A program made the position numbers and the translations under genes. The notes under the pieces were generated by a model. The model was not told the origin of the DNA, searched no databases, and worked only from the letters and a program-made list of their open reading frames with translations. DNA of 64,000 nucleotides from Escherichia coli (GTDB lineage Bacteria > Pseudomonadota > Gammaproteobacteria > Enterobacterales > Enterobacteriaceae), in NCBI RefSeq assembly GCF_024223415.1, contig NZ_CP100502.1; one strand, written 5' to 3'. The stretch's first letter is position 1; each line of letters starts with the position of its first letter. Below are positions 2,031-64,000 of the stretch, piece by piece.

Positions 2031-2443
2031 ACTATCGGATACCTTAAGGGTATCTGATGTGTGTCTTTTAAATGCGTTATGGGGATTCTTCACGTACCTA
2101 AAGAGTCCCCATTAGACATCTTTCTGTTTATGGTGACATGATTCGTCACCGCTTTCCTTTCCTCTCAGTTTCACCATTTCATTCCTTTTCCCTTAACCTG
2201 AACCATGATGTCCACGATGTTTTTATATTGCATTTATGTATCACATATAACCTTCATAATGTTTTTGTATCTATGATTTCCTCTGGTCTTAAAGTTGTGT
2301 GTACAATGTACATGCAATTTATCGTGTTTTTATGTTACATTTGTCCTTTCAAAAAGACCGTTTTTTCATTATAATTGAATATACATTGCATGTATGAAGC
2401 ATGTTTGTTTTTTCTATTTGTTTATGAGCAACGGAGACTGGTT

Positions 2444-3424
2444 ATGAAAATCTTTATTGATGATGGTTCTACCAACATTAAACTTGCCTGGTTGGAGGAT
2501 GGTGACGTGAAAACGTTAATCAGCCCTAACAGCTTTAAACCGGAATGGTCTTTTAGTTTACTGGATGATGCTGCTCCGGCTAATTACGAGATCGACGGCG
2601 AGAAGTTTTCATTTGATCCATTAAGTGCTGATGCTGTCGTAACGACTGAAACACGCTATCAGTACAGTGATGTGAATGTTGTGGCCATTCAGCATGCGCT
2701 ACAGCAGACCGGCCTGAAAGCGCAGCCTGTTGATGTCATCGTCACATTGCCGATCTCTGAATACCTTGACGCCAACAATCAGAAAAATAAGCAAAACATT
2801 GAAAGAAAGAAAAAAAATGTGATGCGTGAAGTACGGGTGCAGGGGAGTGATGCATTTGTTATTCGCAGTGTTTCCGTTCTTCCTGAAAGTATTCCCGCTG
2901 GTTTCAGTGTTCTTGCGGGGCTTGAGGATGATGAATCCCTTTTGATCGTAGATCTCGGTGGTACAACTCTTGATGTGTCGCATGTTCGTAGCAAAATGAC
3001 AGGGATTACAAAAACCTGGTGTGATCCGAATATCGGCGTGTCCCTGATTACATCCGGGGTTAAGGAACAGATGGCTGTACATGCTAATACAAGAGTGAGC
3101 TCATTCCAGGCTGACAATATCATTGTGCACCGTAATGAACCTGACTACCTTTCCCGTCGCATTTATAATGCTGAACAGCGTGAGTCTATCATTAATGTTA
3201 TCAATGAACGGCAGAAGTTGCTTATTAAACGAGTTAATGATGTCATCAGCCGTTTCACCGACTATACACATGTAATGTGTGTTGGTGGTGGGGCTGAAAT
3301 TGTGGCCGAGGCTGTGAAGAACCTGACTAAGGTTCCTGATGAGCGCTTTTATCTGAGCTCATCCCCGCAGTTTGATTTAGTCATGGGAATGATAAAAATG
3401 AAAGGTGGTGTGACTAATGAGTGA
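2444..3424 (+). CDS. parM: ParM/StbA actin-like partition ATPase
   Basis: seq: N-terminus 'MKIFIDDGSTNIKLAW' matches the ParM/StbA phosphate-1 motif; GGAG RBS before ATG 2444 (track ORF from 2375); AT-rich region 2140..2440 upstream. Confidence 0.8.
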   Translation: MKIFIDDGSTNIKLAWLEDGDVKTLISPNSFKPEWSFSLLDDAAPANYEIDGEKFSFDPLSADAVVTTETRYQYSDVNVVAIQHALQQTGLKAQPVDVIVTLPISEYLDANNQKNKQNIERKKKNVMREVRVQGSDAFVIRSVSVLPESIPAGFSVLAGLEDDESLLIVDLGGTTLDVSHVRSKMTGITKTWCDPNIGVSLITSGVKEQMAVHANTRVSSFQADNIIVHRNEPDYLSRRIYNAEQRESIINVINERQKLLIKRVNDVISRFTDYTHVMCVGGGAEIVAEAVKNLTKVPDERFYLSSSPQFDLVMGMIKMKGGVTNE

Positions 3425-3833
3425 TGAAAATAAATCCAGACGCTGCTCATTTGAACTTTTCCCGGATGAACGGACAGGAGATAAGATAGCAGATGAGCTC
3501 ATTGCAAATGAAAAACTGAAGGAGCGGGGACGTTTCATGCGCGCGATGTTAGTTACTGGTGCGGCGTTTGCAGCTATAGATAAACGTCTTCCTTTGCTGA
3601 TATCGGAGTTACTGACAGAAAATACGACTCTGGATGATATTAATAAGGTGATTTCCAGCGTAATACCAGGTGCTTTTTCGGTTGAAAAGAAATTGCTTGA
3701 ATTACTGGAAAAACAATCTGGTCTCCATACGTCTGTGGATTGCAGTACTCCTCTTACAGAGCAGAGTCTGTCGAGAAATGACGGTGAAGACCAGACCAGA
3801 AGAAACGCTGAAAATATGTTCGGAGATGACTGA
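3417..3833 (+). CDS. ParR/StbB-like centromere-binding adaptor
   Basis: seq: 138-aa ORF whose start overlaps the parM stop (translational coupling). infer: by position. Confidence 0.45.
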   Translation: MSDENKSRRCSFELFPDERTGDKIADELIANEKLKERGRFMRAMLVTGAAFAAIDKRLPLLISELLTENTTLDDINKVISSVIPGAFSVEKKLLELLEKQSGLHTSVDCSTPLTEQSLSRNDGEDQTRRNAENMFGDD

Positions 3834-5546: not shown

Positions 5547-5791
5547 GCTGCAGGCAGCCAGCTGTCGTCCTGCCAGATTTCTTCCAGCAGAGACAGGATA
5601 CGTTCTTTATCCTTGTCGTTGCGGGCTCCTGTGACAGATACAGACGGGGCGCTGCCCTGGTCTATACGCAGCCAGATTTCCGGGTAGTGTGGTTTCAGAC
5701 GTTGTTCGATTTCATTCTGTAGCGCCTGAAGTGTGCCTGATTTGAGGTTTTTTGTGCTCTGGCGGTCGAAAAGAATTTCAATGCGGATCAT
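5543..5791 (-). CDS. impC: ImpC, small first gene of the impCAB operon
   Basis: seq: 82-aa ORF overlapping the impA start. known: size and order match impCAB. Confidence 0.7.
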   Translation of the reverse strand: MIRIEILFDRQSTKNLKSGTLQALQNEIEQRLKPHYPEIWLRIDQGSAPSVSVTGARNDKDKERILSLLEEIWQDDSWLPAA

Positions 5792-5812
5792 GTTCTCATC
5801 TCCCTTTTCTTT

Positions 5813-5832
5813 TGCTGTATGTATATACAGTA
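5813..5832. promoter_or_regulatory. LexA (SOS) box upstream of impC
   Basis: seq: 'tgCTGTatgtatatACAGta' fits CTGT-N8-ACAG about 25 to 40 nt upstream of the impC start. Confidence 0.6.
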
Positions 5833-5959
5833 TTCTAATAACTGAATCCGCACACAGTCAAATGTCATTGTTGTGACTAAAAAACGCTCAATTCTCTGAG
5901 TGTGTGGCTGTATGCCTGCTGTGGGCTGCTGTGTCCAGCTTATCCACAGCATTTTGTGC

Positions 5960-6160
5960 ACGGTTCTGTGGACAAAATACCTGGTTACCCAGGCCGTGCC
6001 GGCACGTTAACCGGGCTGCATCCGATGCAAGTGTGTCGCTGTCGCCGGCCTCCTCACCCGGTCACGTTTCGTCGTTCCTCCTCCACGCGCTGCGGCTTCG
6101 GGGCCGCACCTGCATTCGTATGCGGTCGCCCGGTAACAGGTGCGGCACGGCCTGATGGAG
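5960..6160. repeat. GC-rich structured region with loose similarity to the family-A ssi-like repeat
   Basis: seq: 'gcatccgatgcaagtgtgtcgctgtcgccggcctcctcacccggtcac' resembles the family-A core 'gggatgcaagggtacgcttcgccgctgcggtcacccggtc'; lies directly upstream of the + strand ORF at 6185. Confidence 0.3.
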
Positions 6161-6184
6161 GCCGCATGTGAGAGGAGAATTCCC

Positions 6185-7111
6185 ATGCCAAACTGGTGCT
6201 CGAATCGTATGTATTTTTCTGGTGAACCGGCACAGATCGCTGAGATTAAACGACTGGCCAGCGGTGCAGTTACACCGCTTTATCGCCGCGCCACAAATGA
6301 AGGTATTCAGCTGTTTCTGGCCGGAAGTGCCGGACTTCTGCAGATCACTGAAAATATCCGCTCTGAACAGTGCCCCGGAGTGACGGCTGCCGGACGTGGT
6401 GCTGTATCGACGGAAAATATCGCGTTCACCCGCTGGCTGACACACCTGCAGAACGGTGTACTGCTGGATGAGCAAAACTGCCTGATGCTGCATGAACTCT
6501 GGCTGCAGAGCGGTACTGGACAGCGTCGCTGGGAAGGATTACCGGATGATGTCAGGGAAACCATCACTGTGCATTTCACCGCAAAAAGAGGTGACTGGTG
6601 TGACATCTGGGGTAGCGAGGATGTATCGGTGTGGTGGAACCGTCTGTGTGACAACGTAGTGCCGGAAAAAACCATGCCGTTTGACCTGCTGACGGTTCTG
6701 CCGACCCGCCTGGATGTTGAAGTGAATGGCTTTAATGGTGGTGTTCTGAACGGTGTTCCTTCTGCATATCACTGGTATACAGAACGGTATGGCGTGAAGT
6801 GGCCTTGTGGGTATGACCTGAATATCAGTAGTCAGGGAGACAACTGCATTCAGGTGGATTTCGACACGCCGTGGTGTCAGCCGGAAAGCGACGTTGTTGC
6901 AGCATTAAGCCGCCGTTTCGGCTGCACGCTGGAGCACTGGTACGCCGAACAGGGCTGCAATTTCTGTGGCTGGCAGTTGTATGAGCGCGGAGAGCTCGTT
7001 GATGTGCTCTGGGGGGAACTGGAATGGTCTTCCCCGACAGATGACGATGAGCTGCCGGAAGTCACCGGACCTGCGTGGATAGTCGACAAGGTGGCGCATT
7101 ACGGGGGATGA
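6185..7111 (+). CDS. Hypothetical Cys/Trp-rich protein
   Basis: seq: GAGAGGAG RBS before ATG 6185 (track ORF from 6140); many Cys and Trp ('NWCSNRMYF', 'FGCTLEHWYAEQGCNFCGWQ'); no motif I can name. Confidence 0.5.
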   Translation: MPNWCSNRMYFSGEPAQIAEIKRLASGAVTPLYRRATNEGIQLFLAGSAGLLQITENIRSEQCPGVTAAGRGAVSTENIAFTRWLTHLQNGVLLDEQNCLMLHELWLQSGTGQRRWEGLPDDVRETITVHFTAKRGDWCDIWGSEDVSVWWNRLCDNVVPEKTMPFDLLTVLPTRLDVEVNGFNGGVLNGVPSAYHWYTERYGVKWPCGYDLNISSQGDNCIQVDFDTPWCQPESDVVAALSRRFGCTLEHWYAEQGCNFCGWQLYERGELVDVLWGELEWSSPTDDDELPEVTGPAWIVDKVAHYGG

Positions 7112-8412: not shown

Positions 8413-8847
8413 ATGTACGGAACATGCGAAATACTCTGCCGGGAGCTGGCAGCAAAGTATCCGGCAGACACGCCACTGATGCTGGTTGTCTGGTCCCCTG
8501 AAGAGATTCAGGCCCTCGCTGACGGAATGGATATTTCCCTGTCCGATCATGAAATCAGGACCGTCCTGGCGCGCCTGGAGGACATCCCGGAAGACCAGCG
8601 GATTGAGTCCGGTATTTCTTCCGGCGTGGCGATGGAGATTATCAGCAACGTGAGAGAAAACCGCCAGGTGACCGTCCCTGCTGAACTGCTGGCGTCCCTG
8701 ATTCAGACCGCTGAACAGGCACTGTGGAAACGTGAATGGGCCGCCCGTGATAACGGCCTTGCCGTCCCGGAATGTGTTACCCGCCGTCAGGCAGTGATTA
8801 ATCAGGCCCGCACCCTGCTGAAAAACAACACACACGAAAACAACTGA
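8413..8847 (+). CDS. Hypothetical protein, paralog of the 10558..10980 ORF
   Basis: seq: GAGGGGAGAGAG RBS before ATG 8413; 'MYGTCEIL...[14 protein letters not shown]...[17 protein letters not shown]' aligns with 'MYCTVKEI...SDDELETVMQRLDD...RHVTVPAMMLEKVMALA'. Confidence 0.5.
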
Positions 8848-8897
8848 TGTTATCGCCGCCTGCCCTGCGGGCGGCGATACAGGGAGAACGCTTAATC

Positions 8898-9668
8898 ATG
8901 AACAAAACGCTGAATGCACTGGTTTGTCGTCACGCCCGTAACCTGCTGCTGGCGCAGGGCTGGCCGGAAGAGACGGATGTTGACCAGCGAAATCCGAACT
9001 ATCCGGGCTGGATCAGCATTTACGTGCGGCTGGATGCGCCCCGGCTGGCGACGTTACTTATCAACCGTCACGGCGGCGTACTGCCGCCGCTCCTGGCCTC
9101 CGCCATTCAGAGACTGACCGGAACCGGGGCGGAACTGGTACTGTCCGGCAGTCAGTGGCAGTCGCTGCCGGTACTTCCGGCAGACGGAACGCAGGTGTCT
9201 TTCCCGTATGCCGGAGAATGGCTGACCGAAGACGAAATCAGGGCTGTTCTTGATGCGGTGCACGATGCGGTACGAAGCATCTGTTACCAGGTGGCAGAAG
9301 ATGCGCGGCGTATCCGTGCGGCGCTGACCACCACCGGTCAGACGTTGCTGACCCGCCAGACGCGCCGCTTTCGCCTGGTCGTGAAGGAAAGCGATCACCC
9401 CTGCTGGCTCGATGAAGATGACGAAAACCTGCCCGTGGTGCTCGATGCCATCGTGAACCGGGGAGCACGTTTTTCGTCGGTGGAAATGTACCTGGTCAGC
9501 GATTGTATTGAGCATATCCTGTCCTGTGGGCTGGCCTGCGATGTGCTGCGTATACCCGATGAACCGCCCCGCCGCTGGTTTGACCGTGGTGTTCTGCGGG
9601 AGGTGGTCCGGGAAGCCCGGACCGAAATCCGCAGCATGGCGGATGCCCTGGCAAAAATCCGGAAATGA
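8898..9668 (+). CDS. Hypothetical protein
   Basis: seq: GGGAGA RBS before ATG 8898 (track ORF from 8847, overlapping the previous stop); last gene of a four-gene cluster. Confidence 0.45.
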
Positions 9669-9726
9669 TGACACTGGCGGGGTAAATCCCCGCCTTTTTC
9701 CTGCCGGTCCCCGGACAGAGCACAAA

Positions 9727-10057
9727 GGAAGTCGCCGCCGGCTCCGCTTTACCCGGCCATGCGGGGCATGGCCTTGTGGGTTTTCAGTTATGTGGCCACC
9801 GTGTCGTGTGCGGGCTGTGCCGTGCCTCCATCTTAGCCGGGCTGGCAGGGATGCAAGGGTACGCTTCGCCGCTGCGGTCACCCGGTCCCTCCTTCCCGTC
9901 TGCCGTGATTTTCCGGTCGTTCACCCGCTCAGATTTCGCGGTCTCACCCTCCAACTCCCGCCAGCCGTGTGCGTCAGGCTGCGGCTTCCCTTGCGCCCTG
10001 TGCATCCCCGCCTTATCGCCCGGCTTTTATGGAGGCACGGCACCGCCCGGTGTCGCG
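9727..10057 (+). repeat. Family-A ssi/Frpo-like repeat, copy A1
   Basis: seq: about 330 nt nearly identical to 16711..17041, GC-rich and hairpin-rich, ending about 30 nt before a gene start. known: IncI1 and F leading regions carry ssi/Frpo single-strand promoters. Confidence 0.6.
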
Positions 10058-10085: not shown

Positions 10086-10511
10086 ATGCAATATGCGAAA
10101 CCTGTCACTCTGAATGTTGAAGAGTGCGACCGTCTGTTTTTTCTGCCTTACCTGTTTGGCCAGGATTTTCTGTATGTCGAAGCGTCTGTGTACGCGCTGG
10201 CGAAAAAAATGATGCCGGAATATGAAGGCGGATTCTGGCACTTCATCCGCCTGCCGGACGGTGGCGGCTACATGATGCCGGATGGCGACCGTTTCCACAT
10301 AGTGAACGGTGCAAACTGGTTTGACCGTACCGTGAGTGCTGATGCCTGCGGCATCATTCTGACTTCCCTTGTGATTAACCGCCAGTTGTGGCTGTACCAC
10401 GACAGCGGTGATGCAGGACTGACCCAGCTTTACCGGATGCGCGATGCGCAGTTGTGGCGTCACATCGAATTTCACCCTGAATGCAACGCGATTTACGCGG
10501 CTCTGGACTGA
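10086..10511 (+). CDS. klcA: KlcA/ArdB-family antirestriction protein
   Basis: seq: 141 aa, '[51 protein letters not shown]' resembles KlcA/ArdB from memory; GGAGG RBS. Confidence 0.65.
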
Positions 10512-10557
10512 TTAACGGACGGGGCGGCAATGCCGCCCCTGTAAAGGAGACGAGAAA

Positions 10558-10980
10558 ATGTACTGTACTGTTAAAGAAATTATCCGCGAAGTGCTGGATA
10601 CAGACGTGCCGGACAGTGAATGCGTTTTTGCCGTGGTGCTGACCCGTGGGGATGTGCGTCACATAGCCCAGGACTGGAACCTGTCAGACGATGAGCTGGA
10701 AACCGTCATGCAGCGGCTGGACGATGCCTTTGAGCATGGTGCGGATGTCAGCGTTGTTCACGACGTTGTTCGTGAACTGATGGAAGAAAAGCGCGCCAGC
10801 CGTCATGTGACAGTCCCGGCGATGATGCTGGAAAAAGTGATGGCGCTGGCAGGCAGTGAAATGAAGCGCCTGTATGCCGTCGGAAGTGAGAACGGGGGCG
10901 ACGGTGACGCATTCGTCAGGGAGGAACGCGAAGCAATGGACGTTGTGTTACAGGCGCTGGACGGGGAGACGATGTCATGA
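10558..10980 (+). CDS. Hypothetical protein, paralog of the 8413..8847 ORF
   Basis: seq: AAGGAG RBS; shared blocks with the 8413 ORF (see there). Confidence 0.5.
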   Translation: MYCTVKEIIREVLDTDVPDSECVFAVVLTRGDVRHIAQDWNLSDDELETVMQRLDDAFEHGADVSVVHDVVRELMEEKRASRHVTVPAMMLEKVMALAGSEMKRLYAVGSENGGDGDAFVREEREAMDVVLQALDGETMS

Positions 10981-11168
10981 ATATCAGCACAGAAACCCGC
11001 GAAATTCTGCGTAATTACAGGGCCGTGATTAATGCGCGGCGTCGTGAAATGGGGCAGAAACCGCTCACCACCGCGCAGATTGTTGATGAAATCTGCGATT
11101 TTGTGGCGAATCAGCAGGCGGTTTTCCTGGGCGGTCACTACATCTTACAGGGCAGCAGAAACAGGTGA
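10977..11168 (+). CDS. Hypothetical small protein
   Basis: seq: 63-aa ORF overlapping the preceding stop (ATGA). Confidence 0.3.
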   Translation: MNISTETREILRNYRAVINARRREMGQKPLTTAQIVDEICDFVANQQAVFLGGHYILQGSRNR

Positions 11169-11199
11169 TACAGGGGCAGGCGGTGGAGGCCGCCTGTCA

Positions 11200-11905
11200 G
11201 CCCGCGCGAAAACCCCTGGCAGGCTGACGCCTGCCGGAAGGGAAGCGGGCCACGCTGGCGCGTCGCCCGTTACCCTTCCCGTCTGTGATGTGTCTGACTC
11301 AGGAGTGTTTCTTTCTTATGTTATGGAACTGTTCCTGATGTTGTTGTTCCTTTATCTGCTGCTCTGATTCTGACTACTGCAGTGTTGTTCTGTCTGCCGG
11401 GCGCACCTTCGGCTCCCGGCTGCCTGGCGGCATCCGGTCGTCAGGCCCGACTCCGACAGGCAGCTGCTGGCGCACCCGCCAGTCTCCGCCGAACCCGCTG
11501 GCGCGGTTTCGGGCTGTCGCTACGGTCCGATGCGTGAAAACCCGGGCTTGCAGCGACCGTTCCGGTCGCGCCGCCTCTGTCGCGCCGTGACCTGCGCTCC
11601 CTGCACACCTGACGGTGTGTGAGGAAACTGCGCCTGATGGCGCAGCAGTCCTCCCTCCTGCCGCCACCTCTGCGGCCTGTTTCCCGCTGTGGACTTTCCG
11701 GGGGGCAGACGTAACCCCCTCCCGTTCCATCTGTCCAGGGTGAGATGCACCGGCCACAAAATTTTTAGCCATGAACCCGGCAAAAAATTTTGCGTCCGCC
11801 CCCGGACAGCTGTCCCGTGAGGCGGTAAACGGGCCCCCATCGGAAAGGTCCACTGCGGGGAGAAACCCCTGTGAAGTGGACGGCAGGAGGAGCTTTCGCT
11901 CCTCT
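11200..11905 (+). repeat. Family-B ssi/Frpo-like repeat, copy B1
   Basis: seq: long GC-rich repeat shared with 17600..18250 and partly with 20815..21140 (e.g. 'caccttcggctcccggctgcctggcggcatccggtcgtcaggcccgactccgacaggcag'); ends about 70 nt before ssb. Confidence 0.55.
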
Positions 11906-19155: not shown

Positions 19156-20097
19156 GTGAGTAAGAAGAAAAACACCACAACGCCCACGCCGCATGATGCC
19201 GCGTTCCGGTCGTTCCTGGCGAATCCCGACGTCGCCAGAGATTTTCTGGAACTGCATCTTCCTGCGGAGTACCGGCAGTTGTGCGACCTGTCCACGCTGA
19301 AGCTGGAACCCGCCACCTTTGTTGAGCCGGACCTGCATCAGTACGCCAGCGATATCCTCTGGAGCGTGAAAACCACCGGGGGTGAAGATGGTTATGTTTA
19401 TACGCTCATCGAGCACCAGAGCACCGAAAATCTGTACATGCCTTTTCGCATGTTACGCTACAGTGTGGCGGCGATGCAGAGACATCTGGAGCAGCACAAA
19501 ACGTTGCCACTGGTCATTCCGGTGCTGTTCTATCACGGTGAGCGCAGCCCGTACCCGTACAGCATGAACTGGCTGGACTGTTTTGAGAATCCGGCGCTTG
19601 CGGCTAAAATATACACAAAGCCGTTTCCGCTGGTTGATATCACTGTCGTTGATGACAATGAAATCATGAACCATCGCCGGATGGCCGCACTGACGCTGCT
19701 GATGAAGCATATCCGTCAGCGGGATATGCTGATGTGTCTGGACAACCTGGTCAGAGCACTGCAGGACATCCAGGATGAAGAGCAGATTACAGTTCTTTTC
19801 AACTATCTGCTTAATGGCAGCGAACATGTAACGGTTGAATTTTTGCAGACGCTGGCGCAGCGACTGCCGCAGCACGAGGACAGCATTATGACACTGGCAG
19901 AACGTCTTAAGCAGGAAGGTATCCAGCAAGGTATCCAGCAGGGTATCCAGCAGGGTATCCAGCAGGGAGTTCAGCAGGGGGCGCTTCAAAAAGCACGGGA
20001 AATCGCCCGGGAGCTCCGGAACGCGGGAATGCCGGCAGCACAAATCTGTCAGCTGACCGGACTTTCTGAAGCTGAACTGAAGAACATCACTCACTGA
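19156..20097 (+). CDS. rpn: Rpn-family (YhgA-like, PD-(D/E)XK) recombination-promoting nuclease
   Basis: seq: GTG 19156 with CAGGAGG RBS (track from 19099); N-terminal 'HDAAFRSFLANPDVARDFLELHLP...YASDILWSV...YTLIEHQSTE' matches the YhgA/Rpn family from memory. Confidence 0.75.
   Translation: MSKKKNTTTPTPHDAAFRSFLANPDVARDFLELHLPAEYRQLCDLSTLKLEPATFVEPDLHQYASDILWSVKTTGGEDGYVYTLIEHQSTENLYMPFRMLRYSVAAMQRHLEQHKTLPLVIPVLFYHGERSPYPYSMNWLDCFENPALAAKIYTKPFPLVDITVVDDNEIMNHRRMAALTLLMKHIRQRDMLMCLDNLVRALQDIQDEEQITVLFNYLLNGSEHVTVEFLQTLAQRLPQHEDSIMTLAERLKQEGIQQGIQQGIQQGIQQGVQQGALQKAREIARELRNAGMPAAQICQLTGLSEAELKNITH
19888..20097 (+). CDS. Candidate intragenic small protein (RpnS-like), in frame with the rpn C-terminus
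   Basis: seq: internal ATG 19888 preceded by GAGGA at 8 nt spacing; would encode 'MTLAERLKQEG(IQQG)n...ALQKAREIARELRNAG...'. infer: by analogy with Rpn/RpnS intragenic pairs. Confidence 0.3.
   Translation: MTLAERLKQEGIQQGIQQGIQQGIQQGVQQGALQKAREIARELRNAGMPAAQICQLTGLSEAELKNITH
19919..19978 (+). repeat. Five tandem 12-bp repeats (ggtatccagcag) encoding (GIQQ)n within rpn
   Basis: seq: ggtatccagcaa, ggtatccagcag x3, ggagttcagcag in tandem. Confidence 0.9.
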
Positions 20098-32627: not shown

Positions 32628-33278
32628 TTAAAATACTTCGGCTACAGGCATGCCTGCAATCTGCTCCCACTCCTTACGCTTCTCCTGAATTAGGCGAGGA
32701 AAGTCGACAGGGTAATCATATCCTCTTTCTGCCATTGCATGCATTGTATCCGCCATCATTTTGGGATGGATGCATCCTGACGGAATTGAGACCATTGGTA
32801 TATTTATGTATTTTGTATAAATCTCTAGTGTCTTGGCGTCGGTCACAGTGCGTGTGAAGTTGTCAATGTCAAAGCCGATAATATCCATTATATTTCCAGG
32901 GTAAGCACGAGCATACAGCATAGTGCCTTTTTTGGTATCCACGCCAAAATAGACGCCCTGAGTAAAAGACAGTCCCTCATATTCTTTGTCAGGTGAATAA
33001 AAACCGGTGTTTTTTATCTCCGCGACAATTTTTTTTATTTTGTCTTTTCTTGAGCTTGCTCGGGAATACATCAATATTGCAGGGGCAATTAGTAAAAACA
33101 GACAGACGCAAGTATAAATATAATCTTCTTGCGTCACATATCTTGAAGATGTAATGGAGAGCAATCCGAAAAGAATAAAAATGGATAACACTGGTATGCT
33201 TATGAAATATATAAATCTAAGGGCGTAATATAATGTCCACCAAGCAGGATATCTATTGATTGTTTTTACCATTTGCAT
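32628..33278 (-). CDS. excA: Inner-membrane protein, candidate entry-exclusion protein (ExcA-like)
   Basis: seq: ATG 33278 has GGAGGG 7 nt upstream (track from 33302); two hydrophobic spans. known: excA lies between traY and pnd/trbA in R64. Confidence 0.5.
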
Positions 33279-56661: not shown

Positions 56662-56928
56662 TTACCAGGGTAATAAAGACGTATTAAATAAGCTAACAGG
56701 TAGTATTTGCCCTGTAATAAGGTTCCCGGCAAGGCCAGGTCTCAACGTGACGCGTCGCAAAGACATTGTTGTATTCTGCCTGGTTGTATATTCAGTTAAC
56801 CATTTTCTTTTTTCATCGTTCAGAAGTGTTGGTGATAATGATAGTGCCGGATATATTACAGAGCCATTTATTTCTTTTTTCTGTCTCAATATTACCCCGC
56901 AATATTCTCTTTTCGTGTTTCCTGCGAA
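56662..56928 (-). pseudogene. 3' part of a traE-like gene separated from its 5' part by IS2
   Basis: seq: minus-strand frame continues from 58265 across the duplicated GGGGA into 56928..56662 ('...HSFP|FAGNTKREYCGVILRQ...'), reconstructing a 273-aa ORF. Confidence 0.7.
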
Positions 56929-56944
56929 GGGGATGGATTTGCCC

Positions 56945-57850
56945 CTATATTTCCAGACACCTGTTATCACTTAACCCATTACTGGCCTGCTGCCGCAGAT
57001 ATTCCCGTGGCGAGCGATAACCCAGTGCACTATGCGGATGCCATTCGTTATAATGCTCGAACGCCTCTGCAAGGTTCTTTGCTGCCGTTAACCCGTCTGG
57101 TTTAGGCATGATACTGATGTAGTCACGCTTTATCGTTTTCACGAAGCTCTCTGCTATGCCGTTACTCTCCGGACTCCGCACCGCCGTGTTCTTCGGTTCA
57201 AGCCCCAACATCCGGGCAAACTGCCGTGTTTCATTAGCCCGGTAGCATGAACCATTATCCGTCAGCCACTCTACTGGAGACGCCGGAAGCTCGTTGCCGA
57301 AGCGGCGTTCCACCGCTCCCAGCATTACGTCCTGTACTGTTTCACTGTCGAAGCCGCCCGTAGTGACTGCCCAGTGCAGTGCCTCACGGTCACAGCAGTC
57401 CAGCGCGAACGTGACTCGCAGTTTTTCTCCGTTATCACAGCGGAACTCGAACCCGTCAGAGCACCATCGTTGATTGCTTTCTTTCACGGCCACTTTGCCA
57501 GTATGTGCCCGTTTCGATGGCGGTACAGCGGTTTTTCGCTCAAGCAACAGCGCATTCTGGCGCATGATCCGGTAAACACGTTTGGCATTGATCGCAGGCA
57601 TACCATCAAGTTCGGCCTGTCTGCGAAGCAGCGCCCATACCCGACGATAACCATACGTGGGCAGCTCTCCGATAACATGGTGTATACGGAGAAGCACATC
57701 CGTATCATCTGAGTGACGGCTGCGGCGACCATCTTTCCAGTCATCGGTTCGTCTGAGAATGACGTGCAACTGCGCACGCGACACCCGGAGACAACGGCTG
57801 ACTAAGCTTACTCCCCATCCCCGGGCAATAAGGGCGCGTGCGCTATCCAC
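56945..57850 (-). CDS. insD: IS2 transposase orfB (DDE integrase core)
   Basis: seq: 301 aa '...[31 protein letters not shown]...[16 protein letters not shown]'. Confidence 0.9.
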
Positions 57851-58218
57851 TTTTTTGCACGCCCGTATTCAACGGCTTCTTTAAGGAGTTCATTTTCCAT
57901 CGTTTTTTTGCCGAGCAGGCGCTGGAGTTCTTTAATCTGCTTCATGGCAGCAGCAAGTTCAGAGGCAGGAACGACCTGCTCTCCTGCGGCCACAGCAGTA
58001 AGACTTCCCTCCTGGTATTGCTTGCGCCAGAGAAATAACTGGCTGGCTGCCACACCGTGTTGCCGGGCAACAAGGGAGACCGTCATTCCCGGTTCAAAAC
58101 TCTGCTGAACAATAGCGATCTTTTCCTGTGTAGTACGCCGTCTGCGTTTCTCCGGTCCTAAGACATCAATCATCTGCTCTCCAATGACTAGTCTAAAAAC
58201 TAGTATTAAGACTATCAC
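57808..58218 (-). CDS. insC: IS2 transposase orfA (HTH)
   Basis: seq: contains '[56 protein letters not shown]'; true start probably internal to the track ORF. Confidence 0.8.
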
Positions 58219-58264
58219 TTATTTAAGTGATATTGGTTGTCTGGAGATTCAGGGGGCCAGTCTA

Positions 58265-58822
58265 GGGGAAACTATGCCAGAAAATAACTTCAGTGTTGCT
58301 GCTATCACTAATAAGCATTCTGAAATTATCAGCAGTATCTGGCCATTCACCGGACAACGCTATCGGATAGTTTTCATGGCCATTCAGCCAGTCCGGATTG
58401 AGATTAAAACATTCAGCAAGATGTTCGAGAGCGTCAGCTGAAAGATAGTCTGCAAGTCTGGCCGGGTCCTGTATAACCGTGGAGCGGATATTCCATGGCG
58501 ACAGCAATGTTGCCAGTAATGGCGCATTTATATCATGCGACAGCATGATGTATTCAATTCTGCTTATTATGTTTCCTGTGGTGTTATCCGCAGGCATAAA
58601 CATATTATGAAGAGCATCCTCAAGCAGGATTCGGGTTAAATCAGCGGTGGATATGGCTAATTGTTCGCTCATTATCCCCAGAACTTCTCTTACCCCTTGG
58701 GGGTAACGGACCTGCAGAGGTGTCGGGTTTATCTGACGACCGTTGATGAGTTTTTCGCCGATTGCTTTTTTGTCCAGCGAGAGCATCATTCGGGCCGCAA
58801 TACCGGTCGTATTCAGTCTCAT
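58265..58822 (-). pseudogene. 5' part of the traE-like gene (185 codons) truncated by IS2
   Basis: seq: the ORF's stop codon (58262..58264) is supplied by the IS2 terminal 'cta'; see 56662..56928. Confidence 0.7.
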
Positions 58823-58972: not shown

Positions 58973-60017
58973 TTACAGCGGGGTGCTGCCCGGGTTCAGA
59001 GGGCAAATCATAATGTAGTCAGGGTCGTTAACAGGTAACGCTCCGGGAGATGGGACACGTTCGCCTTTCTGTGCTGCAATGGCCAGTGTACGCAACAAAA
59101 CCTCACTGGCGCGGTGAACTGCTTCCTCTTTCGTTGTGGCAGTGACGTGAAGGTTATCAAAATCACCGATCTCAATACGATGCGCTTTCTGCCCATTTTC
59201 TTCATCGATGGTCGTGATATGGGCAGGATACGGCACAAACCATGCTGCCACTTTTTGTGTCTGCCGCCGGCGGGCATCAAGCTTACTGACCAGTTGCCAT
59301 GCACGAAGATGAGTATACCGTTTCAGCATATTCATGGAACGATGTCCTGATATTGCAGCAATCTCCATTACATTCAGGCTACCCAGTTCGAAGAAGCGGC
59401 TTATTGCTTCATGCCGTAGATCGTGAAAATGCAGGTCCTCGATGCGAAGTCGTTGTGTGGCTATTCTCCAGGCATTTTTAAAGCCGGATGCGGTGTAATC
59501 AAAAACATTGCCGTGGAGATTAACGGGCATCATCTGAAGAAAGTTACGGGCACGTCTGGACAGAGGAACATCCCGTGAGTGACCGTTTTTGGTTTCAGGT
59601 AAATGAGCCACACCGTGGCGCAAATCAATGTGCTCCCAACGTAAGGCCAGTATTTCGCCCTGCCGCATGGCTGTCTCAAGGGCAAGATGGAAAATGACAT
59701 ACAACATCAGATTTTTTTCGCGGAAATAGCGAGAAAGGCGACGTTCTTCTGAAGACGTTAGCCGGCGATCTCGTCCCGAGGATACTTTCGGCTTGCGAAC
59801 CAGTTCAACCGGGTTAGTACGACAGGTTCCCCATTCAACACGAGCAATATTGAACAGAGATGACAGAAGGGCGAGTTCAAGACGTACAGTATTACCTGTA
59901 ATGGGTTTACCCGTTCGGGGGTTGATTTCTGCTAAACGAACGTCTCTGTATGTAGCAATATCAACGGTTGTTATTTCGTCCATATTCCGAAGGGCAATGG
60001 GATATCGCTTGATAACA
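58973..60017 (-). pseudogene. rci: rci (shufflon-specific tyrosine recombinase), 3' portion downstream of the IS66-family insertion
   Basis: seq: 336-aa ORF with '[40 protein letters not shown]'; joining with 62468..62577 across one TSD copy gives exactly 384 aa '[19 protein letters not shown]...[18 protein letters not shown]...', the size I recall for R64 Rci. Confidence 0.85.
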
Positions 60018-60088
60018 GTAAGCGTACAGCCTGAACCGTCTGGTCAGAATCTGACGAATTAGACAAAGTGGTGTCCACCAAATAAGTA

Positions 60089-60490
60089 GTGGGAACCAAA
60101 GTGTCAGATATGCAGAAAAATGTGACTCCCGGCAGGCGAAAAGGCTGCCCTAATTATCCTCCCGAATTTAAACAGCAGCTCGTTGCTGCCTCCTGTGAAC
60201 CCGGGATATCCATCTCAAAACTTGCTCTTGAAAATGGCATTAACGCCAATCTGTTGTTCAAATGGCGACAACAATGGCGCGAGGGAAAGCTGCTATTACC
60301 TTCTTCAGAGAGCCCCCAGCTACTTCCTGTGACTCTCGATGCAGCTGCCGAACAGCCAGAATCGCTCGCAGAGGACCCGGAAACCCTCAGTATCAGCTGT
60401 GAGGTAACGTTCCGGCACGGGACGCTCCGCTTCAATGGCAATGTCAGCGAAAAGCTCCTGACTCTGCTGATACAGGAACTGAAGCGATGA
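60089..60490 (+). CDS. IS66-family accessory protein TnpA (orfA)
   Basis: seq: 133 aa, first ORF of the element. Confidence 0.75.
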   Translation: MGTKVSDMQKNVTPGRRKGCPNYPPEFKQQLVAASCEPGISISKLALENGINANLLFKWRQQWREGKLLLPSSESPQLLPVTLDAAAEQPESLAEDPETLSISCEVTFRHGTLRFNGNVSEKLLTLLIQELKR

Positions 60491-60834
60491 TCCCTTTACC
60501 TTCCGGGACCAAAATTTGGCTGGTTGCCGGTATCACCGATATGAGAAATGGCTTCAACGGCCTGGCTGCGAAAGTACAGACGGCGCTGAAAGACGATCCC
60601 ATGTCCGGCCATGTTTTCATTTTCCGGGGCCGCAGCGGCAGTCAGGTTAAACTGCTGTGGTCCACCGGTGACGGACTGTGCCTCCTGACCAAACGGCTGG
60701 AGCGTGGGCGCTTCGCCTGGCCGTCAGCCCGTGATGGCAAAGTGTTCCTTACACAGGCGCAGCTGGCGATGCTGCTGGAAGGTATCGACTGGCGACAGCC
60801 TAAGCGGCTGCTGACCTCCCTGACCATGCTGTAA
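60487..60834 (+). CDS. IS66-family TnpB (orfB)
   Basis: seq: 115 aa '[31 protein letters not shown]...' overlapping the orfA stop. Confidence 0.8.
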
Positions 60835-60883
60835 ATCTCTTTATCCTGGTTGTCACAGAATAAGCCCGGTAAAATACGGGCTT

Positions 60884-62422
60884 ATGAACGACATCTCTTC
60901 TGACGACATCTTCCTGCTGAAACAGCGCCTGGCCGAACAGGAAGCGCTGATCCACGCCCTGCAGGAAAAGCTGAGCAACCGGGAGCGCGAAATAGACCAT
61001 CTGCAGGCGCAGCTGGATAAACTCCGCCGGATGAACTTCGGCAGTCGTTCCGAAAAAGTCTCCCGCCGTATCGCACAAATGGAAGCCGATCTGAACCAGC
61101 TTCAGAAAGAGAGCGATACGCTGACTGGTAGGGTGTATGACCCGGCAGTACAGCGTCCGTTGCGTCAGACCCGCATCCGTAAGCCGTTCCCTGAATCACT
61201 ACCCCGTGACGAAAAGCGACTGTTGCCTGCGGCGCCGTGCTGCCCGAACTGCGGCGGTTCACTGAGCTATCTGGGCGAGGATACCGCCGAACAGCTGGAG
61301 TTGATGCGTAGCGCCTTCCGGGTTATCCGGACGGTACGGGAAAAACATGCCTGTACTCAGTGCGATGCCATCGTGCAGGCACCTGCACCTTCGCGGCCCA
61401 TCGAGCGGGGTATCGCCGGACCGGGGCTGCTGGCCCGCGTGCTGACCTCGAAGTATGCAGAGCACACCCCGCTGTATCGCCAGTCAGAAATATACGGCCG
61501 GCAAGGTGTGGAGCTGAGCCGTTCACTGCTGTCGGGCTGGGTGGATGCATGCTGCCGGCTGCTGTCTCCGCTGGAAGAGGCGCTTCATGGCTATGTCATG
61601 ACTGACGGCAAACTCCATGCCGATGATACCCCGGTCCAGGTACTGATGCCGGGTAATAAGAAGACGAAGACCGGGCGGTTGTGGGCGTATGTTCGTGATG
61701 ACCGCAATGCCGGGTCAGCGTTGGCACCTGCAGTGTGGTTCGCTTACAGCCCGGACAGAAAAGGCATCCATCCGCAGACTCATCTTGCTTGCTTCAGCGG
61801 TGTGCTGCAAGCGGATGCGTACGCCGGGTTCAACGAGCTGTATCGCAATGGTGGGATAACGGAAGCTGCCTGCTGGGCTCATGCCCGCCGAAAGATCCAC
61901 GATGTGCACGTCCGCATCCCGTCAGCACTGACGGAAGAAGCCCTGGAGCAGATCGGTCAGTTGTACGCCATAGAGGCGGATATAAGGGGAATGCCGGCAG
62001 AGCAGCGGCTTGCTGAACGTCAGCGAAAAACGAAACCGCTGTTGAAATCCCTGGAAAGCTGGTTGCGTGAAAAGATGAAGACCCTGTCGCGACACTCAGA
62101 GTTGGCGAAGGCGTTCGCGTACGCACTTAACCAGTGGCCGGCACTGACGTACTATGCGAACGATGGCTGGGTGGAAATCGACAACAACATCGCTGAAAAT
62201 GCCCTGCGGGCGGTAAGTCTGGGTCGTAAAAACTTCCTGTTCTTCGGCTCTGGCCATGGTGGTGAGCGGGGAGCGCTACTGTACAGCCTGATAGGGACGT
62301 GCAAACTGAATGACGTGGATCCAGAAAGCTACCTTCGCCATGTGCTTGGCGTCATAGCAGACTGGCCGGTCAACCGGGTCAGCGAACTGCTTCCGTGGCG
62401 CATAGCACTGCCAGCTGAATAA
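60884..62422 (+). CDS. IS66-family transposase TnpC (orfC)
   Basis: seq: 512 aa with N-terminal coiled-coil/leucine-zipper, CxxC pairs and a DDE-like catalytic region. Confidence 0.8.
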
Positions 62423-62467
62423 CACATCCCCGTCAATACGGCCCTCGCTGTACGCTTACTGATAACA

Positions 62468-62577
62468 TTGCTCCGGTAAAACTCCTGTTGATGCCCTTTC
62501 TTGTGAACAGAAACTGTTTTCAGGTACTTATCCAGTGCGCGTGACAGGGACATTTTACGGATGCGTGGAGACGGCAT
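62468..62577 (-). pseudogene. rci: rci 5' fragment (first 39 codons) upstream of the IS66-family insertion
   Basis: seq: ATG at 62577 '[39 protein letters not shown]' runs into the IS inverted repeat. Confidence 0.8.
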
Positions 62578-62628: not shown

Positions 62629-62647
62629 GTGCCAATCCGGTACCTGG
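62629..62647 (+). repeat. Shufflon 19-bp recombination site (sfx), direct orientation
   Basis: seq: 'gtgccaatccggtacctgg', encodes CQSGTW in the cassette frame. Confidence 0.8.
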
Positions 62648-62893
62648 GGCGCTCCTAAAATTCAATTCACAACGCAGACCTACAACATAGCTAAAAACAC
62701 TCGTAATTTAAGGCTCGGGGTCCATGCATATTGCTCATGGACTTACCTGAATGGCTCACCCTTTGGTGGTTTTCAACAGGTATATTCCGACCAAAACAAC
62801 GTTTGGTATGTGAGTAATTATGCTTGGGGAAATTATGAGTCTGGTGGGACCATATCAGTCACATGCCTCAATCTTCCTGGTGCTGGAGCTTAA
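62630..62893 (+). CDS. pilV: PilV C-terminal cassette in shufflon segment 1 (no own start; expressed only when fused to pilV)
   Basis: seq: frame begins in the sfx repeat ([13 protein letters not shown]...) and stops at 62893; track ORF 62561..62893 is the same frame with a spurious upstream start. Confidence 0.6.
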
Positions 62894-63120
62894 TTAAAGG
62901 GGCAACAGTAGGCATCGACATGTTCCTCATCAACACCATCACCAATACCGTACATGCGTGTTCCAGTCATAATGTATCCAGTCGGACATTGAATCGGCTT
63001 GTAATAGATCGAACCACCACTCTTACCGCCGATAAAGTGATTCATTGCTACGGATGATTTGTACCAATTACATGCTGAGTAATTAATTTTATTACCCCCT
63101 GACCACCGACCGGATTGGCA
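62890..63120 (-). CDS. pilV: PilV C-terminal cassette in shufflon segment 1, opposite orientation
   Basis: seq: frame begins in the inverted repeat ([19 protein letters not shown]...); stop overlaps the convergent cassette's stop in 'ttaa'. Confidence 0.6.
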
Positions 63121-63121
63121 C
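63103..63121 (-). repeat. Shufflon 19-bp recombination site, inverted orientation
   Basis: seq: 'ccaccgaccggattggcac', reverse complement of the sfx consensus. Confidence 0.8.
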
Positions 63122-63129
63122 TGGCCTAC

Positions 63130-63148
63130 GTGCCAATCCGGTACGTGG
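63130..63148 (+). repeat. Shufflon 19-bp recombination site, direct orientation
   Basis: seq: 'gtgccaatccggtacgtgg', 8 bp from the preceding inverted copy. Confidence 0.8.
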
Positions 63149-63484
63149 AAGACTTCTGGTTCGCTCAATGGTTCTTACACAAACTTAGGTTCACATAGAG
63201 GTTCATTCTCAGGGCGGAATTCAGGGGGCAGTACATTGTTTATTTATGCATCTGGAGGTAATGGAGGATCTGCCGGAGGTGCATGTGCAAATACATCCCG
63301 ACTGCAGGGATATGTTGGTGGGACGCTAATTAGCGTGAATGCCAGCAATAACCCTGCATATGGAAAAACAGCCTTTATCAGCTTTGCTGTACCTGCAGGT
63401 ACTTCCTATCAGATAACATCCTATCCAACAGAAAATACATCATGTGGTGCCGGGGTATTTTCAGTATTTGGATATCAAACTTAA
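63131..63484 (+). CDS. pilV: PilV C-terminal cassette in shufflon segment 2
   Basis: seq: CQSGTWKTSGSLNGS...FGYQT from the repeat at 63130; Gly-rich. Confidence 0.55.
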   Translation, partial: CQSGTWKTSGSLNGSYTNLGSHRGSFSGRNSGGSTLFIYASGGNGGSAGGACANTSRLQGYVGGTLISVNASNNPAYGKTAFISFAVPAGTSYQITSYPTENTSCGAGVFSVFGYQT

Positions 63485-63702
63485 TTGAGCGTTACACACG
63501 ACGCAATACAACCTGTCTTATGCTCGTATTTGTACCATTTGCGTGAACCTGCTGGGCTCTCAACTACCTGGCAGTAGTGGGCATCCTCTGCGTTGCCCAT
63601 TCTGGCAATGGCACAGAAGTCGAATTGCCCCAGATAACCTGTGGTGGAAAGCTGAGTAACTTTGAGTTTTCCACCTATTGTCCCCCACGTACCGGATTGG
63701 CA
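63481..63702 (-). CDS. pilV: PilV C-terminal cassette in shufflon segment 2, opposite orientation
   Basis: seq: my translation from the inverted repeat gives CQSGTWGTIGGKLKVTQL... to a stop overlapping the + cassette stop; not in the track (no Met start). Confidence 0.5.
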   Translation of the reverse strand, partial: CQSGTWGTIGGKLKVTQLSTTGYLGQFDFCAIARMGNAEDAHYCQVVESPAGSRKWYKYEHKTGCIASCVTLN

Positions 63703-63703
63703 C
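63685..63703 (-). repeat. Shufflon 19-bp recombination site, inverted orientation
   Basis: seq: 'ccacgtaccggattggcac'. Confidence 0.8.
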
Positions 63704-63711
63704 TGGCCTAC

Positions 63712-63730
63712 GTGCCAATCCGGTACCTGG
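63712..63730 (+). repeat. Shufflon 19-bp recombination site, direct orientation
   Basis: seq: 'gtgccaatccggtacctgg'. Confidence 0.8.
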
Positions 63731-63976
63731 AGAAAGGTAGGATCTGGTGAGCTTCAAATTGCTACAGCACAGGCCACAGGTTGGCGCTTTCCTGGAGCAA
63801 CAGCTACTTGTCCAACTGGAAAACGTGTTACAGGTGGCGGCGGAATATGCACCTCACGAACTGGTTACATATGGCTTACCAGGTCATTCCCATCAGCCAA
63901 TAACTCATGGTCGGCTGCGTGCGATACAACCGAAGATCAGAATGGTTCAATAACTGTATATGCCATTTGCCAATAA
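63713..63976 (+). CDS. pilV: PilV C-terminal cassette in shufflon segment 3
   Basis: seq: CQSGTWRKVGSGELQIATAQATGW...YAICQ from the repeat at 63712; segment continues past the window end. Confidence 0.55.
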   Translation, partial: CQSGTWRKVGSGELQIATAQATGWRFPGATATCPTGKRVTGGGGICTSRTGYIWLTRSFPSANNSWSAACDTTEDQNGSITVYAICQ

Positions 63977-64000
63977 GCTATTTCAAGCAAGTAATCTTCA

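Follow-up and report, generated by a model that had tools for sequence, protein, structure and literature searches.

An R64-type shufflon on an Escherichia coli plasmid, with its recombinase gene rci split by an ISEc8-like element and its arrangement probably frozen

The window, by which is meant the whole 64-kb (64,000-nucleotide) stretch of E. coli DNA analysed here, ends within a shufflon (62629-64000) that is preceded by an interrupted rci gene and by a traE gene carrying IS2 (Table 1). The 19-bp sfx pattern GTGCCAATCCGGTNNNTGG was found five times in the window with 0 mismatches, against a chance expectation of 0.06 matches per 64-kb window, and none of 100 shuffles gave at least five matches. 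The sites alternate in orientation (+, -, +, -, +) with 8-bp spacers between the segments, and the order from left to right, starting at rci, is segment C, segment A and the first 289 bp of segment B. Reading from the TGC of G-TGC CAA TCC GG in each sfx site gives open cassettes of 87, 76, 117, 73 and 87 amino acids, all five of which begin with CQSG(T/R)W. The sequence-only reading had proposed that five 19-bp sfx sites bound the segments of a shufflon, and that the cassettes open inside these repeats to encode CQSG(T/R)W and alternative PilV C-termini; the exact matches bear out the former, and inward translation the latter. The 1.5-kb region 62460-64000 matches 1387 plasmid records, nearly all of them conjugative IncI-type plasmids from Escherichia, Salmonella and Shigella, and the annotation under these matches is that of a PilV tip adhesin and a site-specific integrase.

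Table 1. Coordinates of the features in and beside the shufflon
Feature	Position	Strand	Remarks
IS2 in traE	56934-58264		Duplication GGGGA; interrupts traE
rci, 3' part	58973..60017	-	Minus-strand ORF; nt 111-1155, codons ~38-384 + stop
ISEc8-like IS66-family element	60018..62459	+	2442 bp; from breakpoints vs three references, inverted repeats, duplication
IS genes	tnpA 60089-60490, tnpB 60487-60834, tnpC 60884-62422	+	
rci, 5' part	62460..62577	-	Codons 1-39 + 1 nt; start codon 62577-62575; frame then enters IS
sfx sites	62629-62647(+), 63103-63121(-), 63130-63148(+), 63685-63703(-), 63712-63730(+)		Exact match to GTGCCAATCCGGTNNNTGG
Segment C	62629..63121		493 bp with both sfx, 62629-62647(+) and 63103-63121(-)
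Cassette C	62630-62893	+	87 aa, GAPKIQ... tail
Cassette C'	63120-62890	-	76 aa
Inter-segment spacer	63122..63129		TGGCCTAC, 8 bp
Segment A	63130..63703		574 bp with both sfx, 63130-63148(+) and 63685-63703(-)
Cassette A	63131-63484	+	117 aa
Cassette A'	63702-63481	-	73 aa
Inter-segment spacer, second copy	63704..63711		TGGCCTAC, 8 bp
Segment B	63712..64000		Truncated by window end; 525 bp when complete, expected to end near 64236
Cassette B'	63713-63976	+	87 aa, RKVGSG... tail
Cassette B	63978-64000	-	Last codons + stop only; convergent with B'

The segment names were taken from depositor annotations and later papers. The name C comes from the depositor labels 'shufflon protein C' and 'PilVC C-terminal segment' on an identical tail, and the name A from the label 'Prepilin, shufflon protein A' on the 117-aa tail. 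An 85-aa tail is labelled 'PilVB C-terminal segment' in LC567057.1, which gives the name B, and B' was assigned from its homologue, the B' cassette in the 'BD' segment of IncI2. Cassettes C, C', A, A' and B' of the window are each 100% identical to those of R64 (NC_005014.1), whose segment A is given a length of 563 bp (PMC11852207).

The rci gene is split at codon 39/40 (nt 118) by the ISEc8-like element. Its start codon lies 51 bp from the first sfx site, and its 5' part codes for 39 residues of Rci before the frame reads on into IS sequence. Its 3' part is 100% identical to pF1022-4 and 99.9% identical to R64 rci, and Rci residues 38-384 were recovered in it at 100% by tblastn. The gene was identified by identity to R64 Rci in place of NCBIfam, which contains no specific Rci model and gave only sub-threshold XerC-like matches. 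The genes of the inserted element score above the NCBIfam cut-offs for IS66 TnpA (NF047595, 97 bits, cut-off 74), TnpB (NF033819, 120 bits, cut-off 50) and the transposase (NF033517, 457 bits, cut-off 180). Over 2441 nt the element shares 99.5% identity with copies annotated by PGAP as 'IS66-like element ISEc8 family', these copies rather than the ISfinder reference being the comparator. The terminal inverted repeats begin GTAAGCGTACAGC, with 13/13 terminal nucleotides matching between the two ends, and on either side of the element stands the same 8 bp, TGATAACA, as a perfect direct duplication (60010-60017 and 62460-62467). An 8-bp target duplication is typical of the IS66 family. Joining the two parts of rci minus one copy of the duplication yields a protein identical to R64 Rci at 384 of 384 residues; since removal of the element restores the product in full, the insertion is therefore recent. 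In the window, rci adjoins the last sfx site as in an R64-type shufflon but is not intact, and the locus is thus R64-type by descent, but a disabled copy. The split recombinase gene, absent from the sequence-only reading, is the only feature specific to the window sequence.

Shufflons are a recognised assembly problem (PMC5430464), and no other record contained the exact rci::ISEc8 junction: a 601-nt probe across it (59700-60300) matched no record with at least 80% coverage among 72,556 plasmids and 5,426 complete E. coli genomes, and the chimeric junction ORFs (82 and 94 aa) had no match in the protein index. Both facts speak for the insertion or the segment order being an artefact of assembly. 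Against this, the duplication is perfect, the inverted repeats are complete and excision restores a perfect rci; the window holds just one copy of the ISEc8-like element; and the segment order C-A-B is also present in one piece in NZ_CP033963.1. An assembly artefact is accordingly extremely unlikely. The order rci-C-A-B, the cassette sequences, the stop-codon geometry and the split of rci are seen directly in the molecule, which is a single assembled sequence and may not represent a homogeneous population of arrangements.

In R64 and other relatives the genes run traF-traE-rci-shufflon-pilV, rci and pilV sharing a strand. The sequence-only reading placed the pilV constant region beyond the window end, and this probably holds, with pilV on the minus strand, as judged from relatives that are collinear or 99.99-100% identical. 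In the relatives (L001, L006 and L025-L028) pilV continues across an sfx site as ...GAILS-CQSGTW, a junction that keeps every cassette in frame, and is followed by the pil genes; cassettes lying out of frame with pilV, the finding that would have spoken against the sequence-only reading, are thus contradicted by proxy. Two groups of relatives were considered and set aside. One is pF1022-4, which is 99.6-100% identical to the window over about 60 kb, IS content aside, and has IS2 at another site and an IncK2/Z-like pil operon, so that the traE::IS2 lineage was preferred. The other consists of E. fergusonii plasmids, which are the best-covering matches and carry ISEc8; their rci is intact and their IS copies lie elsewhere.

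The sibling contigs of the traE::IS2 lineage are 99.99% identical to the window over 11.8 kb and contain an intact 384-aa rci, R64-type pil genes and a three-segment, six-sfx shufflon that has no D segment. Three of these siblings (L025, L026 and L028), 99.99% identical, contain the same three segments in three different arrangements, which is direct comparative evidence of inversion in this lineage as long as Rci is available. The same segments also occur in different arrangements in R64, L001, L002 and L006. From these sequence comparisons, the window plasmid is best read as a derivative of the traE::IS2 lineage that gained the ISEc8-like element in rci. Transposon sequencing of the related plasmid pESBL gave a probability of being non-essential of 1.00 for Rci and 0.93 for TraE, and Rci, TraE and the shufflon region were not required for pESBL transfer to E. 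coli K-12 (PMC4288162). Both IS insertions are therefore tolerable, since Rci and TraE are dispensable for pESBL transfer.

In R64, Rci was shown to bind asymmetric sfx sites and to invert the DNA between any inverted pair, and PilV variants are thin-pilus tip adhesins that recognise differing recipient LPS in liquid mating (PMC11852207, PMC5430464). In this established mechanism Rci acts as a tyrosine recombinase on any two inverted sfx sites, and each inversion changes the cassette that is fused in frame, through Cys-Gln-Ser-Gly, to the pilV constant part. The swapped PilV C-terminus changes the recipient lipopolysaccharides that are recognised in liquid mating. In the window the sfx sites and cassettes are intact, though the recombinase gene is broken, and the shufflon is for this reason probably frozen in the arrangement seen. 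The cassette next to pilV would be B, and the locked adhesin therefore PilVB, provided that the plasmid resembles its closest siblings in having three segments; this fused cassette is predicted from relatives, as the window stops short of the sixth sfx site, the remainder of segment B and the pilV constant region. Taken as a whole, we hold with high confidence that the region is the end nearest rci, two and a half segments long (C, A and part of B), of an IncI1 shufflon of the R64/ColIb-P9 type in which rci is split and the arrangement probably frozen.

Continued activity of the shufflon would require either Rci supplied in trans by a second IncI-type plasmid or a truncated Rci (Met49-end, 336 aa) expressed from the end of the IS. 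The sfx sites and cassettes, intact and identical to those of R64, would permit it; the remnant ORF (58973-59983) retains the whole catalytic domain, so that its inactivity is only assumed, and some depositors annotate the 336-aa form as rci. No second rci homologue, however, was detected by tblastn in the 64-kb window. A consensus scan, which is a weak method, found no sigma-70-like promoter directed at the remnant from the adjoining IS end, and transcription of the IS genes runs the other way. The 48 residues missing from the remnant presumably belong to the N-terminal DNA-binding part of the tyrosine recombinase. A shufflon that is still active is therefore quite improbable, and loss of Rci with a frozen arrangement is the preferred reading.

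The 336-aa remnant was also tried as a marker of disrupted copies and rejected as unspecific, being a common alternative start call on intact rci as well. A look-up of this remnant exposed other disrupted rci alleles. In GCA_014505025.1 and GCA_003792995.2, rci is interrupted by IS2 with the duplication GTTAT at rci nt 112-116, and in p15078279 (NZ_MK181566.1) by a different IS2 copy with the duplication AAGCG at rci nt 118-122. The duplication in the window spans rci nt 111-118. These plasmids thus differ from the window in the inserted element and its duplication (IS2 and 5 bp, versus the IS66 family and 8 bp), and the positions lie within 12 bp of one another. Three independent insertions from two IS families within 12 bp suggest that this stretch is a hotspot for insertion or that loss of rci is selected for. 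The stretch of rci nt 111-122 (...AATGTTATCAAGCG...) could possibly be a recurrent target for IS of different families, a doubtful proposal that is offered as a lead only, because the search for disrupted rci was biased to the first ~144 nt and then to the junction of the window. If it is true, IncI shufflons would be locked time and again, independently, in nature, possibly because some hosts favour a single fixed PilV adhesin or an end to Rci activity. Should the clustering hold in an unbiased survey, it would amount to a natural, recurrent off-route for adhesin variation on clinically important plasmids.

The convergent cassettes of the window share stop-codon letters. In segment C the plus-strand stop TAA (62891-62893) and the minus-strand stop (62890-62892) share the tetranucleotide TTAA at 62890-62893, which sits within the palindrome TTAATTAA, and in segment A the plus-strand stop (63482-63484) and the minus-strand stop (63481-63483) share TTAA at 63481-63484; the coordinates proposed for these overlaps by the sequence-only reading are thus correct. 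Segment B has no such overlap, the plus-strand stop (63974-63976) being separated from the minus-strand stop (CTA, 63978-63980) by a 1-nt gap, TAA-G-CTA. R64 itself shares this geometry, with TTAA overlaps in A and C and a 1-nt gap between B and B'. Among the R64-type loci retrieved, the A/A' and C/C' overlaps were each found in 13 of 13 and the B/B' 1-nt gap in 11 of 11, these loci being nearly identical to one another and hence not independent evidence. The check across IncI plasmids that had been called for extends the overlap to IncI2, in which the C-like segment keeps TTAA with altered flanks (AGCTTAATTA versus GATTTAACCG) and the same lengths of 87 and 76 aa, and the A-like segment has the same CAAACTTAATTGAG junction as in IncI1.

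Outside the A and C segments the geometry varies. The B'/D' pair of IncI2 has a 9-nt gap between the cassettes, and among distant Rci/PilV shufflons it measures 5 nt (pECOED), 83 nt (a Salmonella plasmid) and 102 nt (Burkholderia); the cassettes of two Citrobacter plasmids lie 567-569 nt apart, with a sugar O-acetyltransferase gene inside the gap. These gaps of 5-569 nt rule out the TTAA overlap as a general shufflon rule. The overlap is already implicit in the published coordinates of pESBL, whose table places C' at 19604-19822 and C at 19819-20070, gives 20847 as the end of A' and 20844 as the start of PilV(A), and lists B and B' one base apart (PMC4288162). No paper discussing it explicitly was found in a searchable library of literature. 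In sequence terms, the TTAA overlap is a conserved, lineage-specific trait of the A and C segments of IncI1 and IncI2 and not a design rule of shufflons. It is the maximal compaction of two convergent cassettes, without a separate functional role and with no demonstrated functional weight.

The sequence-only reading had also held that an indel anywhere in a segment would harm both of its alternative tails. This does not follow from the geometry, in which the cassettes converge and share just 2 nt of stop codon: an indel frameshifts only its own cassette, because each frame is anchored on its own flanking sfx site. In an IncI2 record (L008) and a contig (L016), cassette A is frameshifted, with an intact A' cassette of 73 aa opposite it in that segment; these frameshifted records may include sequencing errors.

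The overlap might instead be a selected functional element, such as a bidirectional multi-frame stop or a constraint coupling both cassettes. Its persistence from IncI1 to IncI2 despite the differing flanks, together with the conserved 87/76 lengths, is consistent with selection, although ordinary purifying selection on two stop codons explains the retention. The motifs TTAATTAA and TTAATTGA supply stops in a second frame too, and the frameshifted A cassette of L016 terminates at a second-frame TGA; the same two records, with A frameshifted beside an intact A', show the cassettes to be uncoupled. Lengthening segment A 2.5-3.5 fold was observed to lower the inversion frequency, which could favour compaction, but shortening it by 100-250 bp left the frequency unchanged (PMC11852207). 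The gaps in segment B, in IncI2 BD and in the more distant shufflons also argue against selection for the overlap. Selection of TTAA as a functional element is thus unlikely, and compaction of convergent cassettes is the reading retained here.

The practical value of these results is one of annotation: the window is best labelled as carrying segments C, A and, in part, B from the shufflon of an IncI1-type plasmid, beside the insertions rci::ISEc8-like and traE::IS2. With its recombinase disrupted, the plasmid probably makes a single PilV adhesin variant, which would narrow the recipient range in liquid mating, and its shufflon should assemble unambiguously. The shufflon adds nothing new, being sequence-identical to the R64 system, and the stop overlap can be read from published coordinates.

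How does the locus compare with named shufflon systems? The R64 shufflon was reportedly described by Komano et al. in 1986-87. R64 (IncI1; NC_005014.1) contains segments A, B, C and D, seven sfx sites and rci, and its sfx sequence is the same as that of the window, as are the traE-rci-shufflon-pilV order and, after removal of the IS, the Rci product. Comparison of segment content with R64, which the sequence-only reading had suggested, identifies the first segment of the window as C/C', the second as A/A' and the cut third as B'/B. Cassettes B and D' of R64 are also 100% identical in relatives. The architecture that had been treated as noteworthy is therefore simply that of R64, which has an identical one. 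The differences are that rci of the window carries the ISEc8-like element, that the segment order is not the same, as expected for an invertible system, and that the D segment is absent in the closest siblings of the window, which have three segments and six sfx sites. ColIb-P9 has a three-segment shufflon (A, B and C; PMC5430464), and the same three segments are found in these siblings. The traE::IS2 lineage, e.g., GCA_958333425.1 (CATUXG010000018.1), shares the IS2 in traE with the window, but has an intact rci and several arrangements in place of rci::ISEc8. IncI2 plasmids of the R721/pHNSHP45 type, with segments A, BD and C, have the same sfx core and the same CQSG junction as the window; they differ in that Rci is only ~76% and the tails ~84% identical, B' is paired with D', and the conjugation backbone is MPF_T. 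In IncI1 ST3 plasmids, ISEcp1-blaCTX-M-1 lies in segment B, the CTX-M unit being located in pilVB (bioRxiv 10.1101/2022.07.06.498992); here, as in the rci::IS2 plasmids and the window, a mobile element disables one part of the system and leaves the rest intact. Overall, the shufflon of the window is itself already known: it is a textbook R64-type IncI1 system.

The plasmid pF1022-4 contains an rci gene and shufflon cassettes identical to those of R64, yet its pilV constant region (10161-11366 in the fetched locus L006) and pil genes are divergent and IncK2/Z-like. When the constant part of its PilV was compared with that of the relative locus L001 (5806-7176), alignment was confined to the vicinity of the C-terminus, and the junction ...GAILSCQSGTW was found to be common to both proteins. 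The presence of R64-identical cassettes beside a divergent pilV, together with this shared junction, suggests that recombination at or near sfx, the 19-bp recombination site, could move the cassette array between pil operons.

The window and pF1022-4 are near-identical plasmids, but IS2 interrupts the minus-strand traE gene in the window, whereas in pF1022-4 it lies at 65265-66596, between a HEAT-repeat gene and excA, a site that is empty in the window (32665-32669). Thus, the two plasmids are siblings differing by IS2 position. In addition, pF1022-4 shows no alignment to the initial ~4 kb of the window. The traE::IS2 allele is widespread in public assemblies, with entries in 51 index blocks, and rci was observed to be intact beside it in every contig shown from these assemblies. 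In a TnSeq study, TraE was non-essential for pESBL transfer (PMC4288162).

Within rci, the shufflon recombinase gene, 12 bp take three independent IS insertions: one in the window, one in GCA_014505025.1 and GCA_003792995.2, and one in p15078279. Either a hotspot for IS insertion or selection favouring the loss of rci could account for this cluster, in a search that was biased toward the same region. Other lesions were also observed: in a Logan contig (SRR17854535, L021, about 5699-6199), a deletion fuses shufflon segment B straight to rci nt 89, and in locus L018 (about 9960), rci codon 35 has a 1-nt deletion (CGG to CG). Each of these two lesions could be genuine, or could stem from an error in assembly or sequencing.

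Coordinates of insertions, stop overlap sites and segment-borne genes
Feature	Locus	Position	Detail
IS2 in traE	window	56934-58264	1331 bp; 5-bp duplication GGGGA
traE parts	window	56662-56933, 58265-58822	minus strand; split by IS2
Duplication flanking ISEc8-like element in rci	window	60010-60017 / 62460-62467	duplication, rci nt 111-118
IS2 variant in rci	L017, L020 (GCA_014505025.1, GCA_003792995.2)	8637-9967	duplication GTTAT, nt 112-116
Another IS2 copy in rci	L024 (p15078279)	2290-3620	duplication AAGCG, nt 118-122
Stop overlap site	window	62886-62897	TTAATTAA, 8-bp palindrome
Stop overlap site	window	63479-63488	TTAATTGA
Sugar O-acetyltransferase gene in shufflon segment	L007 (Citrobacter plasmid)	2890-3396	
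Sugar O-acetyltransferase gene in shufflon segment	L011 (Citrobacter plasmid)	3157-3663	

Both sequences at which convergent stop codons share TTAA, in segments C and A, also supply second-frame stop codons. The A cassette of contig L016, which is frameshifted and 118 aa long, ends on the second-frame TGA of the overlap site.

Two distant Citrobacter shufflons each contain a complete sugar O-acetyltransferase gene within an invertible segment, flanked by two convergent PilV cassettes. Their sfx-like sites lie mostly in one orientation (5 versus 1 in L007, 3 versus 2 in L011), unlike the sites of R64, whose layout is alternating.
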